This document shows positions 5,114-6,694 of a stretch of 64,000 nucleotides of DNA, piece by piece. Source of the DNA: a plasmid. Under the pieces are notes generated by a model. It was given only the letters and a program-made list of their open reading frames with translations, ran no database searches and was not told the DNA's origin. The position numbers and the translations under genes are program-made. How positions within the stretch are numbered: position 1 is the first letter of the stretch; each line of letters opens with the position of its first letter. The DNA is taken from the sequence record NZ_CP023785.1. The stretch is one strand, 5' to 3'.

Positions 5114-5216
5114 AAGAAGAGCTGCAGTCCTAAATGAGGATTGTAGCTCTTTTTGTTTTACATAGAAACAGTAAAAATGAAAAGGCCTGTTTAGGAAGGC
5201 ACAAGCGCCTTCTCAA

Positions 5217-5300
5217 TTGAAAGACCTTTCTCTCACTCCAACCGCCACCGCCGTTCGAGAAGAAAGGAAGTGAACGCTACGCGTTCACTAAGATAAAGGG
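5217..5300. repeat. GC-rich structured element A (nested hairpins containing motif ctccaaccgccaccgccg)
   Basis: The sequence has an outer stem aaagaccttt/aaagggtctt and inner hairpins gtgaacgctacgcgttcac and gtcttgcatagcaagac. The loop motif recurs at 6610-6627. Confidence 0.45.
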
Positions 5301-5410
5301 TCTTGCATAGCAAGACAAAATAGAAAAAATTTCCTCTCACCAAAAGGTTCGCTCCTGTTCGTTATCTCTTTATTGATTTGTCAGACCGGCAACAAGTTGC
5401 CTTTTATCAC

Positions 5411-5466
5411 CAAAAAGCGACAAGGACAAGGGTAAATGGCACGCTGCGCGCCCTTGTCTTGTCGCT
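5411..5466. repeat. perfect ~19-bp inverted repeat (aaagcgacaaggacaaggg ... cccttgtcttgtcgcttt) with ~18-nt spacer
   Basis: Read directly from the sequence. It lies in an intergenic leading-region stretch and does not follow any gene, so it is not an ordinary terminator. Confidence 0.5.
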
Positions 5467-5555
5467 TTTCGTTGATTCATTCTGGCCAACAAATCAATAA
5501 AGAAAGAACTAACGAAAGGAAGTAAAACCTTTCCTAAGAGGAGGCAGAATCAATC

Positions 5556-5762
5556 ATGCGAAAGAAATTTGATTATTGGGGTGTTCCCTTCAGCGAATTA
5601 TTCCCAAACTATCATGCACCACATACTGTCGAATGCGATTGTGGAGAAAGAGCGAAATGTATCAAAAGCTATTGTTTGTATCAATGTCCAACATGCGGGA
5701 AAAAATATACCTTGTCTTATGGCGATTATATTTTAATTGATGAGAAAGGAAAGAAACGCTGA
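5556..5762 (+). CDS. small Cys4 zinc-ribbon protein (68 aa)
   Basis: An AAGAGGAGG RBS precedes it. CDCGERAKC...CPTCGKK forms two CxxC pairs. Confidence 0.55.
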   Translation: MRKKFDYWGVPFSELFPNYHAPHTVECDCGERAKCIKSYCLYQCPTCGKKYTLSYGDYILIDEKGKKR

Positions 5763-6013
5763 TGAAAACACAACACAAATTATTGACTGTAAAAGAAGTC
5801 GTTCAAATTTTGGTGGACAAAGAAGTCATTTCTGAAAAAGTAGCAGAAGTTTTACTTATTCCGCGGTACTGGACGATAGAAACCCCTTTAGTAGAGGATG
5901 CACCGACTATGCTATTTGAAGACCTAGTGAAGATTGCAGGATATGAACTGCATTATCAAGAAAACTTGGAAACTTATGAAAACGAATATTGGTTAACCAA
6001 ATTAGAGAACTAA
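5762..6013 (+). CDS. hypothetical protein (83 aa)
   Basis: ATGA start/stop overlap with the upstream gene indicates translational coupling. The product is acidic. Confidence 0.5.
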   Translation: MKTQHKLLTVKEVVQILVDKEVISEKVAEVLLIPRYWTIETPLVEDAPTMLFEDLVKIAGYELHYQENLETYENEYWLTKLEN

Positions 6014-6029
6014 AAAGGAGAAAAAAATA

Positions 6030-6185
6030 TGGCTCAAAATTACTATGACGAATTTGTCAAATTACCTTTGGATAAAATGGCACAAAAAATGGAGGATATG
6101 ACGTTCCTATACAACGAAACACGTGTTCCAAAAAAACATTATAAAGAAAAATTGTCGGTAGCTGTGGAAGAAATGATTGAATAAG
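6030..6185 (+). CDS. hypothetical protein (51 aa, MAQNYYDEFVKLPLDKMAQKMEDMTFLYNETRVPKKHYKEKLSVAVEEMIE)
   Basis: Hand-translated, with an AAAGGAGAAAAAA RBS. Confidence 0.45.
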
Positions 6186-6193
6186 GTGTCGAA

Positions 6194-6466
6194 ATGAATC
6201 TTATTGCGACGTACTATCGAACACTGGAAGAACTGAAAAAGCAAAATGCAAAATGGTTTTTCCAAGCCTTACTATGCTTGGAAGTAGGTGTCAAACCAAG
6301 CACTATTAAACCTTCTGAATACCAAGCTTTAGAACTAACGTATGCGAAATTTATCGAAACGAAAAAAGCCAAGACTGTTTCAAGTGAATGGTTAGATTAT
6401 TTTGAAAATATCAATAAGTATGGCGCATATTACACCATGAAAAAGGAAGACAACGAAAATGAATAA
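6194..6466 (+). CDS. hypothetical protein (90 aa)
   Basis: Track ORF. It belongs to the co-directional run of small genes typical of plasmid leading regions. Confidence 0.5.
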   Translation: MNLIATYYRTLEELKKQNAKWFFQALLCLEVGVKPSTIKPSEYQALELTYAKFIETKKAKTVSSEWLDYFENINKYGAYYTMKKEDNENE

Positions 6467-6587
6467 GGTGATTTATCAACTAACAACGGATTCCATATCA
6501 ACGATTTGAAAGAAAAAAAGGTCAATAATCATTTATACCGAAAAGTGAGAATGTGTGAAACAAGGACAAAAAACGCCTAGTAACTAA

Positions 6588-6651
6588 GGAAATGGTTCTT
6601 ATTTCGCACCAATCGCTCCAACCGCCCCCGCCGCTTAGGTGGTGCGAAATA
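6588..6651. repeat. GC-rich structured element B (12-bp stem tatttcgcacca/tggtgcgaaata with loop containing ctccaaccgcccccgccg)
   Basis: It shares the 18-nt GC-rich loop motif with element A at 5238-5255. Confidence 0.45.
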
Positions 6652-6694
6652 AACGGGCAAAGCCCGATAACTTAAGAGAAAGAAGGTGATCCAT

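Follow-up and report, generated by a model that had tools for sequence, protein, structure and literature searches.

How Gram-positive conjugative plasmids turn on their anti-defence and establishment genes after entry is an open question, and it is raised in a concrete form by a cluster of hairpins on an Enterococcus faecium RepA_N megaplasmid. The cluster lies at 5200-6660 of the window, by which we mean the whole 64,000-nt stretch of sequence record NZ_CP023785.1 that was analyzed. An earlier note on this DNA had drawn attention to two GC-rich stem-loops sharing a loop motif and to a separate inverted repeat, and had proposed single-strand initiation (ssi) or Frpo-like promoter sites, an origin of transfer (oriT) or nick region, or structured small RNAs (sRNAs). 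Our reading is that the locus combines a hairpin promoter with GC-loop boundary elements at the edges of establishment operons, and to this statement as a whole we give a probability of roughly 0.4.

The GC-loop hairpin on the left (hairpin A), two small hairpins that follow it and a 211-nt hairpin (5332-5542, - strand) form one composite module between a terminator at 5114-5154 and the ribosome-binding site (RBS) of the open reading frame (ORF) starting at 5556. Folded as DNA, region 5190-5560 reaches -78.7 kcal/mol, compared with -39.4 +/- 3.9 kcal/mol for shuffled sequences (z = -10). The inverted repeat at 5411-5466, described in the earlier note as perfect over 19 bp, is a real structure, but it contains one bulged G and is only the apex (stem and loop 5412-5469) of the 211-nt hairpin, whose right base pairs with the RBS AGGAGG (5540-5545) of ORF 5556. 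Frpo and ssi sites are single-stranded DNA (ssDNA) promoters from the leading regions of F and ColIb-P9 (Masai & Arai 1997; used in PMC11541004), and 5332-5542 shares two of their defining features: it is a long imperfect hairpin far more stable than chance, and it carries promoter elements on the non-template arm of the folded template, with the -10 in a mismatched region. No sigma-70-like promoter was found on the + strand between 5154 and 5556. On the - strand, a -35 element TTGTCC (5429-5424) is followed by a 17-nt spacer, TGA and the -10 element TAAAAG (5406-5401) at a junction; the mirror on the right arm of the + strand reads TTGTCT (5454-5459), 16 nt and TTCATT (5476-5481), without the -11 adenine. 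The element on the left arm is TGATAAAAG in the window and TGATACTGT in pTEF2, with TTCATT and TTCTTT as the right-arm counterparts. The elements keep a fixed distance from a conserved apex, ACAAGGG...CCCTTGT, and place the predicted start sites of the window at ~5488 (+, towards the gene) and ~5394 (-).

The same asymmetry, a good -10 on the 3' arm of the bottom strand only, is found in five lineages. Besides the window, these are L164 (TTGTGT-17-TGA-TACAAG on the bottom-strand 3' arm versus TTCATC in the gene-side mirror; labels in L denote sequences used for comparison), the pTEF1 type (TTGTTT-16-TGG-TACTGT versus TCCTTT), the pTEF2 type (TTGTCT-16-TGA-TACTGT versus TTCTTT) and Listeria L066 (TTGTTT-17-TATAAT versus TATGAA). 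The bottom strand, from which the downstream genes are transcribed, is the better folding strand in every lineage tested, with -56.1 versus -50.8, -87.4 versus -76.9 and -74.0 versus -65.4 kcal/mol for the long hairpins, more G.T pairs, and the same advantage for whole modules. In plain double-stranded DNA (dsDNA), the -35 and -10 elements are turned the other way, facing small bottom-strand terminators instead of the genes. A bottom strand that becomes single-stranded would fold into the long hairpin, whose 3' arm would supply the -35 and -10 as non-template strand, with the -10 held in an unpaired bubble or junction; RNA polymerase would then transcribe out of the hairpin into the ORFs at 5556-6466. 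We consider it probable that the long hairpin is a Frpo-like promoter of this kind, and we infer that it is used from ssDNA in recipients. No literature was found that connects pCF10, pAD1 or Enterococcus to Frpo or to ssDNA promoters. At the tip of the hairpin, the 18-nt apical loop (window 5433-5450) is inverted in L094 relative to the window in otherwise near-identical modules (TAAATGGCACGCTGCGCG versus CGCGCAGCGTGCCATTTA), which suggests a flip by recombination between the arms.

Published start sites in the pTEF1 and pTEF2 homologues bear on this design. The differential RNA sequencing (dRNA-seq) table of Michaux et al. (PMC7724050, Suppl. Table 1) lists primary sites enriched by terminator exonuclease (TEX), among them a pair in pTEF2 at 36756(-) and 36854(+), with heights of 95 and 12, and a pair in pTEF1 at 17372(-) and 17469(+), with heights of 116 and 67. 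The leftward pTEF2 start had been predicted from the design near 36853 before the table was consulted; the table gives 36854. The 50-mers upstream of the paired starts are the two arms of the hairpin, and in both pairs the greater height belongs to the gene-directed start, though its duplex -10 (TTCTTT, TCCTTT) has no -11 adenine. On the folded bottom strand of the pTEF2 type, the starts face each other (6344 pairs with 6248, and the other start is 6246), and the -10 TACTGT sits in an 8x7 internal loop. The GC-loop hairpins of pTEF1 and pTEF2 have no start site in these data. Initiation on a hairpin or cruciform is the best explanation for mirrored starts of this kind, although they fall short of proof because the cultures were not matings. 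The proposal of Frpo- or ssi-like sites thus gains support for the long hairpin, from its geometry and from the homologous pTEF1/pTEF2 starts, and none for the GC-loop hairpins. Very strong antisense/orphan starts were also observed at 35159(+) in pTEF2 (NC_004671.1) and 16683(+) in pTEF1 (NC_004669.1), with step heights of 143,286 and 125,343; they are intergenic, just upstream of the AcrIIA9 gene and inside the operon bracketed by GC-loop hairpins (L243 ~7941, -), and point to a very abundant antisense RNA.

The two GC-rich motif hairpins of the earlier note are real and stand out clearly from the rest of the window. The motif CTCCAACCGCC[A/C]CCGCCG occurs twice in 64 kb where no copy is expected, each time as a hairpin loop, and both copies (CTCCAACCGCCMCCGCCG at 5236-5253 and 6616-6633) are on the + strand. 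There are no further copies with up to three mismatches in the 64 kb, 100 shuffles gave none, and no diverged copies (up to four mismatches plus a stem) were found in the window and the plasmids compared with it; L238 has one copy with two substitutions, detected through flank homology only. Hairpin A (5225-5267, strand unassigned) has a stem of 10 bp with one bulged A (5225-5234 / 5257-5267), in which CCTTTCT+CTC pairs with GAG+AGAAAGG, and the pair A5235-T5254 closes an 18-nt core at 5236-5253 that reads CTCCAACCGCCACCGCCG on the + strand and CGGCGGTGGCGGTTGGAG on the - strand. Hairpin B (6599-6652, strand unassigned) has a perfect 13-bp stem (6599-6611 / 6640-6652), and the pair G6615-C6634 closes the core at 6616-6633 (CTCCAACCGCCCCCGCCG).

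Two small perfect hairpins, at 5269-5289 (9 bp, loop TAC) and 5300-5316 (7 bp, loop ATA), follow hairpin A rather than being nested in it as originally described, and an alternative outer stem of A, AAGACC/GGTCTT, competes with the second of them. One small GC hairpin, CGGGC-AAA-GCCCG at 6654-6666, follows hairpin B. All three are terminator-like on the - strand, where the hairpin at 5269-5289 is followed by the pyrimidine-rich arm of A and that at 6654-6666 by TTTATTT, which is the 5' arm of B; the T-run of the small bottom-strand terminators is in this way shared with the 5' arm of the GC-loop hairpin. The view that none of the structures is in terminator position therefore holds for the + strand but not for the - strand. 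Hairpins A and B themselves do not resemble intrinsic terminators, which have a loop of 3-8 nt and a U-tract right after the stem; their loops span 18-26 nt and no T-run follows them on either strand. The T-rich 5' arm of the enterococcal copies serves the neighboring small hairpin, and in the versions from Listeria T6-8 comes after a GC/AT stem on the - strand. The stems are nearly all Watson-Crick, and their wobble pairs show a weak lean to the - strand. On its G-rich strand the loop reads GG-C-GG-(T/G)-GG-C-GG-T(T/G)-GG and varies at two linker T positions only, and it has the attributes of a G-quadruplex sequence: at least four G-tracts, short linkers and variation restricted to the linkers.

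Conservation across related plasmids, which the earlier note had named among the checks to make, is extensive. Matches to a 36-nt consensus were found in 901 Enterococcus, 37 Listeria and 1 Lactococcus plasmids, the majority of them conjugative or mobilizable, and the consensus is absent from small rolling-circle plasmids. In a scan of 185,579 genomes, real copies were confined to low-GC contigs of Enterococcus, Listeria and Latilactobacillus, and a metagenome scan gave more low-GC copies. Matches in high-GC genomes and metagenomes were discarded as coding chance matches without stems, and those in viral contigs were likewise coding chance matches only. The stems are unrelated between lineages (for example TTTTTTCATGCGCGCC/GGCGCGCATGAAAAAA, GAAGTGTGATACTTTTC/GAAAAGTATCACACTTC, AGAATTTGCCTTTCC/GGAAAGGCAAATTCT and GGGTTTCT/AGAAACCC), and the 18-nt loop varies across lineages at only two positions (A/C). 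The flanks reach a self-complementarity score of at least 7 in 10 of 23 flank lineages; the same score is reached in 2.8% of pairings across lineages and by 6 of the 108 chance matches from high-GC DNA. Among 59 distinct plasmid-type copies, the loop-closing pair is A-T in 37 and G-C in 22, and it is mismatched in none (0). Taken together, the invariant loop, the complete turnover of the stem and the covarying closing pair indicate that selection acts on a folded single strand whose loop is sequence-specific. Hairpins of this GC-loop type form a conserved structured element, not described before, in which the stem varies, the closing pair covaries and the GC-rich loop of 18 nt is nearly invariant. 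Rfam gave no match at the gathering threshold over 5200-6660 and chance-level matches only at E up to 10, a literature text search with the literal motif sequence returned nothing, and we could find no described counterpart. The lack of an Rfam match and of a start at the motif hairpins in the pTEF1/pTEF2 dRNA-seq speaks against a stand-alone sRNA, and an insertion sequence fragment, which the earlier note had named as a refuting outcome, is excluded, as only the loop is common to the copies.

The arrangement of the copies is also regular. There are 1-3 copies per 50-200 kb plasmid, spaced 0.5-4 kb apart; two-copy contigs have all copies on one strand (14/14), a same-strand ORF or unit lies upstream of the hairpin in every locus examined, and copies tend to bracket a small operon. 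In what we call class A, the GC-loop hairpin is followed by one or more small GC hairpins, an imperfect hairpin of 200-380 nt, and the RBS and first gene of the operon. This layout is carried by the E. faecium type (window, L016, L094, L244), the pAD1/pTEF1-like L002, the pCF10/pTEF2-like L004 and L243, Listeria (L066; Listeria newyorkensis) and other enterococcal contigs (L082, L164, L233). The ORFs upstream of the class A modules of the window and pTEF2 show no homology to each other. In the terminal class, the GC-loop hairpin and a small hairpin or terminator stand at the end of a unit, as in hairpin B of the window and in the copies that follow ssb in L002 and pcfJ in pCF10-type plasmids; the terminal hairpin of Listeria has its own T-run on the opposite strand. 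The idea that the orientation of the GC-rich loop tracks repA or the direction of replication was rejected as inconsistent between the window plasmid, L244 and pTEF2. Listeria has a second conserved piece, a hairpin of the form GCCAAA...TTTGGC whose end reads TTTGGCA(A/C)TGCC; it lies upstream of the GC-loop hairpin at a distance of 25-35 nt and was located in L003 (4941-4985), L005 (4946-4990), L024, L030, L043, L066 (1500-1535) and L238 (25678-25712).

The strand that is transferred can be assigned in relatives of the window plasmid. A 40-mer of the pCF10 oriT, taken from the supplement of PMC6514445, falls on the bottom strand of L115 between pcfE and pcfF, where the oriT is placed at 16940-16969, with an inverted repeat, GCAACATGCTAGCATGTTGC, 5' of the nic region; it lies in this orientation on the template strand of the AcrIIA9-PcfJ operon that is bracketed by GC-loop hairpins. 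The 59.6-kb conjugative E. faecium plasmid NZ_CP066609.1, a relative of the window type, has its MobP2 relaxase, type IV secretion system and A/B operon on one strand, and the transferred strand of the E. faecium MobP2 plasmid L244 was assigned by the pLS20 nick-strand rule, that is, by homology of the relaxase family. On this evidence, the transferred strand is in both enterococcal groups the template of the operon and carries the G-rich version of the loop. For the window plasmid, whose own record is typed as non-mobilizable and in which no relaxase was found near the locus, the transferred strand is taken from these relatives. A rule tying loop orientation to the relaxase gene held in L004, L115, L006, L238 and L240, failed in the E. 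faecium L244 and the pAD1-like L002, and was dropped.

What the GC-loop hairpin does is less certain than what it is. We tentatively favor a role as boundary or insulator element, well short of an even chance, because the hairpins sit between units, are fused to small terminators that share their T-run and bracket the operons with hairpin promoters, and because the establishment gene regulatory sequence type 1 (EGeRS1) of the pLS20 family and pBS72 (PMC8708921) blocks read-through. Together with the adjacent terminators, the hairpins would act at both ends of the operon. The invariant loop would be the determinant of recognition or structure, its G-rich strand either forming a two-layer G-quadruplex cap or binding a protein, and such a cap could stop polymerases on ssDNA templates.

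The C-rich loop may instead work as RNA. Lying in the 3' untranslated region or in intercistronic RNA of the + strand, the unstructured 18-nt loop would bind a conserved protein or a G-rich RNA and control the stability, processing or translation of establishment transcripts, which we regard as possible if somewhat unlikely. C-rich loops are typical seed regions of Firmicute sRNAs, each locus examined has a same-strand unit upstream, hairpin B lies ~30 nt upstream of a Shine-Dalgarno (SD) sequence and the hairpins have no separate start site; an RNA element would also be independent of the transferred strand and tolerate the split between Listeria and Enterococcus discussed below. Yet a complementary G-rich partner was not found on the plasmids beyond scattered 9-mers, and the commonest class A stem variant, CCTCTCT/AGAAAGG, is a C.A mismatch on the + strand and a G.T pair on the - strand. 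In class A, moreover, a + strand terminator (5114-5154) precedes the hairpin, so that little + strand RNA is expected there, and the C-rich loop of L238 is antisense to the AcrIIA9-PcfJ operon that is bracketed there. Quite unlikely, in our estimate, is a priming site on the transferred strand similar to ssi or single-strand origin (sso) sequences, served by a plasmid DUF3991-Toprim primase (PcfD-like) or by the host primosome and timing the shut-off of the neighboring hairpin promoter. Conserved loops on hairpins are also known from CS-6 of ssoA and from the ssiA/B sites of RSF1010. DUF3991+Toprim_2 proteins are encoded in 3/3 plasmid groups checked, and the spacing of copies by 0.5-4 kb would suit such a role, as would the copy that pCF10-type and E. 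gilvus plasmids carry on the transferred strand right after the relaxase operon, in the position of sso1 of ICEBs1 (PMC4595007). Orientation to the transferred strand differs, however, between E. faecium and Listeria MobP2 plasmids, just 1-3 copies are present on plasmids of 50-200 kb, and priming 60-100 nt upstream would immediately destroy the hairpin promoter; nor does the element resemble known sso types, and small rolling-circle plasmids do not carry the motif.

Slightly more doubtful still is the notion that the element is an ordinary part of bidirectional terminators or of the 3' end of a type I toxin-antitoxin RNA, with a loop kept by recent descent or horizontal spread. Small GC hairpins with T-runs do abut the element, T6-8 comes after the Listeria hairpin on the - strand, and type I toxin loci lie next to the element in the window, L244, pTEF2 (starts 32497/32778), L002, L238 and L239. 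Loops of 18-26 nt are nevertheless atypical of intrinsic terminators, the copies of the window have no T-run on the + strand, and a loop that is invariant despite full stem turnover, with a covarying closing pair, indicates selection on the loop and not descent alone. Same-orientation copies bracket variable gene sets (A-B in the window, a-b in pCF10, L024 and L238), which would fit a recombination site or cassette boundary, with direct repeats of a folded site swapping gene sets in the manner of attC or PeSL, and the inverted apical loop of the long hairpin in L094 points to recombination between arms. This is very improbable, given that no recombinase is consistently adjacent, that the conserved part is the loop and not the base of the stem as in attC, and that 18 nt is short for RecA-dependent exchange. 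The oriT, relaxase nick site or secondary transfer origin suggested in the earlier note is the least credible of all, with hardly any probability left to it: the hairpin does lie in a transfer-associated region, but the pCF10-type oriT is 3 kb away, between pcfE and pcfF, and unrelated in sequence. An oriT has an inverted repeat followed by a nic core and is present once beside the relaxosome genes, whereas the GC-loop hairpin occurs as one to three copies per plasmid, on the same strand where there are two or three, and shows no conserved nic core beside its conserved loop. Base pairing between the loop and the 3' end of 16S rRNA was also considered; it gives 8/9 pairs with a central mismatch, falls inside helix 45 and was dropped.

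Several observations weigh against the combined reading of a hairpin promoter flanked by GC-loop boundaries. The supporting start sites belong to the pTEF1/pTEF2 homologues and not to a module of the window type, and they come from ordinary cultures rather than recipients; they could reflect cruciform extrusion, ssDNA in donors or an unusual extended -10 dsDNA promoter, and the relative heights could stem from differences in RNA stability. The -10 of the window, TAAAAG, is weak and sits at a three-way junction. In the pLS20 system the transferred strand is the non-template strand of the EGeRS1 operons, and its authors reject an ssDNA promoter (PMC8708921). Hairpin B lies inside a possible single transcript running from ORF 6194-6466 to ORF 6695 and is thus not an absolute block. 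Termination, insulation, priming and G-quadruplex formation by the GC-loop hairpin are all predictions, and the two-layer G-quadruplex that caps it in the gquad model of ViennaRNA comes from a model that overrates two-layer quadruplexes. In the Listeria MobP2 plasmids L238 and L240, the C-rich loop is opposite to the sense strand of the relaxase, whereas in the E. faecium MobP2 plasmid it is on the same strand, and the AcrIIA9-PcfJ operon of L238 is bracketed by motif copies in reverse relative orientation compared with pCF10. A sequence-specific signal on the transferred strand is therefore not valid for all carriers.

The surroundings of the locus are shared by many plasmids: NZ_CP017793.1 matches region 5100-6750 at 100% identity, and 626 plasmid records contain this region at 90% identity or above. 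Upstream lie ArdC-like, DUF3991-Toprim, topoisomerase and AbiEi/Eii genes and a type I toxin-antitoxin locus, and the upstream + strand unit ends at the intrinsic terminator 5114-5154 (18-bp stem and T-run), the left border of the module. Between hairpins A and B lie four small ORFs (5556-5762, 5762-6013, 6029-6184 and 6194-6466, all +), none of which a Pfam search assigned to a family. The small hairpin at 6654-6666 is ~20 nt upstream of the SD sequence of ORF 6686/6695-6895, and the region downstream consists of small ORFs of unknown function, all on the + strand.

Some further features of this DNA deserve mention in their own right. The type I toxin-antitoxin locus at 4460-4793 comprises Rfam matches to RatA (4460-4548, +) and rli28 (4611-4793, -) and a holin-like toxin ORF (4577-4711, -); among the other plasmids with such a locus next to the GC-loop hairpin, pTEF2 and L002 use one common U-run for the toxin mRNA terminator and the 5' arm of the hairpin. 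Database ORFs run across GC-loop hairpins or arms at 6577-6813 (-) of the window, 13943-14110 of L115 (pcfI), 4871-5044 of L005 and in pTEF2 (EF_B0032 and EF_B0040); these look like artefacts of ORF calling on structured non-coding DNA, and pcfI, EF_B0032, EF_B0040 and WP_305954258.1 are flagged as apparently spurious. A perfect 20-bp inverted repeat, TTGTATACGTATAAACTTAT / ATAAGTTTATACGTATACAA (2078-2131), at the start of the AbiEi antitoxin gene is probably its autoregulation operator. The small ORF 6911-7090 (MPIAIGNKRLPVTLDEKRQKEL...) has a ribbon-helix-helix look by eye and no Pfam match; with the palindromic boxes AAGTGACGTCACTT and AAGTGATATCACTT (7083-7131) that follow it upstream of ORF 7149, it could form a repressor-operator pair like Reg576/EGeRS2 of p576. 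A match to the Rfam family SpF66_sRNA at 43688-43903 scores 42.1 bits against a gathering score of 42, and this family has been reported on E. faecium AUS0004 plasmid 1 as sRNA_128.

The locus matters for what its carriers do, as these plasmids spread vancomycin and linezolid resistance and carry the anti-CRISPR AcrIIA9, and about 950 plasmids can be recognized by the 18-nt signature as having such regions. So far, only F-like and IncI plasmids have been shown to use ssDNA promoters, EGeRS1 is without a known mechanism, and the present locus offers a concrete and testable design, with an asymmetric -10 on one arm and mirrored starts in public data. At its widest, the proposal is of a Gram-positive counterpart of Frpo in the pCF10/pAD1 families, the E. 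faecium vancomycin-resistance megaplasmids and perhaps Listeria, in which a -10 usable only when the template folds would give a burst of establishment and anti-defence genes from transferred or extruded ssDNA, coupled to a GC-loop hairpin, capped by a G-quadruplex or bound by a factor, that fences the operon off from polymerases coming in on ssDNA templates. We hold this full version to be unlikely; if true, it would represent a new class of boundary signal for the ssDNA mode, where RNA-hairpin terminators work poorly.

Compared with known systems, the GC-loop hairpin is similar to Rho-independent terminators in standing at the ends of units and, in Listeria, in having a stem with T6-8 on one strand, but its loop is 18-26 nt long and invariant, and in the enterococcal copies no T-run follows the hairpin on either strand. 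With ssoA and ssoT, sso1 of ICEBs1 (PMC4595007) and ssiA/ssiB of RSF1010 it shares the nature of a folded, strand-specific ssDNA signal with a conserved loop or base on variable hairpins, and one motif copy in pCF10-type and E. gilvus plasmids lies downstream of the relaxase gene as sso1 does. It differs from the sso family in having no RS_B, although no search was aimed at that consensus, and no conserved CS-6 (TAGCGT occurs only by chance on the - strand of the hairpin at 5269-5289 and is lost in L016/L018), in an orientation to the transferred strand that varies and in its absence from rolling-circle plasmids. The long hairpin is likened to Frpo and ssi by its design, similarity of sequence not being expected: a long imperfect hairpin in the template strand, whose stem holds the -35 and whose -10 falls in a mismatched stretch, stands upstream of small leading or establishment genes that have no ordinary dsDNA promoter, and pCF10-type and E. 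faecium MobP2 plasmids transfer the template strand. The enterococcal and listerial hosts are, in contrast, Gram-positive, the duplex elements of the enterococcal module fire the other way, into dedicated terminators, the enterococcal starts were seen in ordinary cultures, and the module has an extra GC-loop hairpin that Frpo is without.

The closest known Gram-positive analogue is EGeRS1 (PMC8708921). Its copies are 420-750 bp long and 62-95% identical over their whole length, and its block of read-through was shown experimentally (PMC8708921). The enterococcal modules do not show the identity of more than 60% that unites EGeRS1 copies, the EGeRS1 copies of pBS72 are without the CTCCAACCGCC motif, judged from those in L242 (gaps 4701-6634, 10820-11764, 12991-13683 and 17171-18104), and the motif and modules had no match among Bacillus plasmids. 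All four pBS72 copies fold better on the template strand (-163 versus -137 kcal/mol), which fits poorly with the published view of the non-template strand as the one transferred. In layout, the enterococcal module and EGeRS1 correspond: both are GC-richer and dense in inverted repeats, lie just upstream of the RBS of an establishment operon that has no dsDNA sigma-A promoter, and are present in several copies per plasmid.

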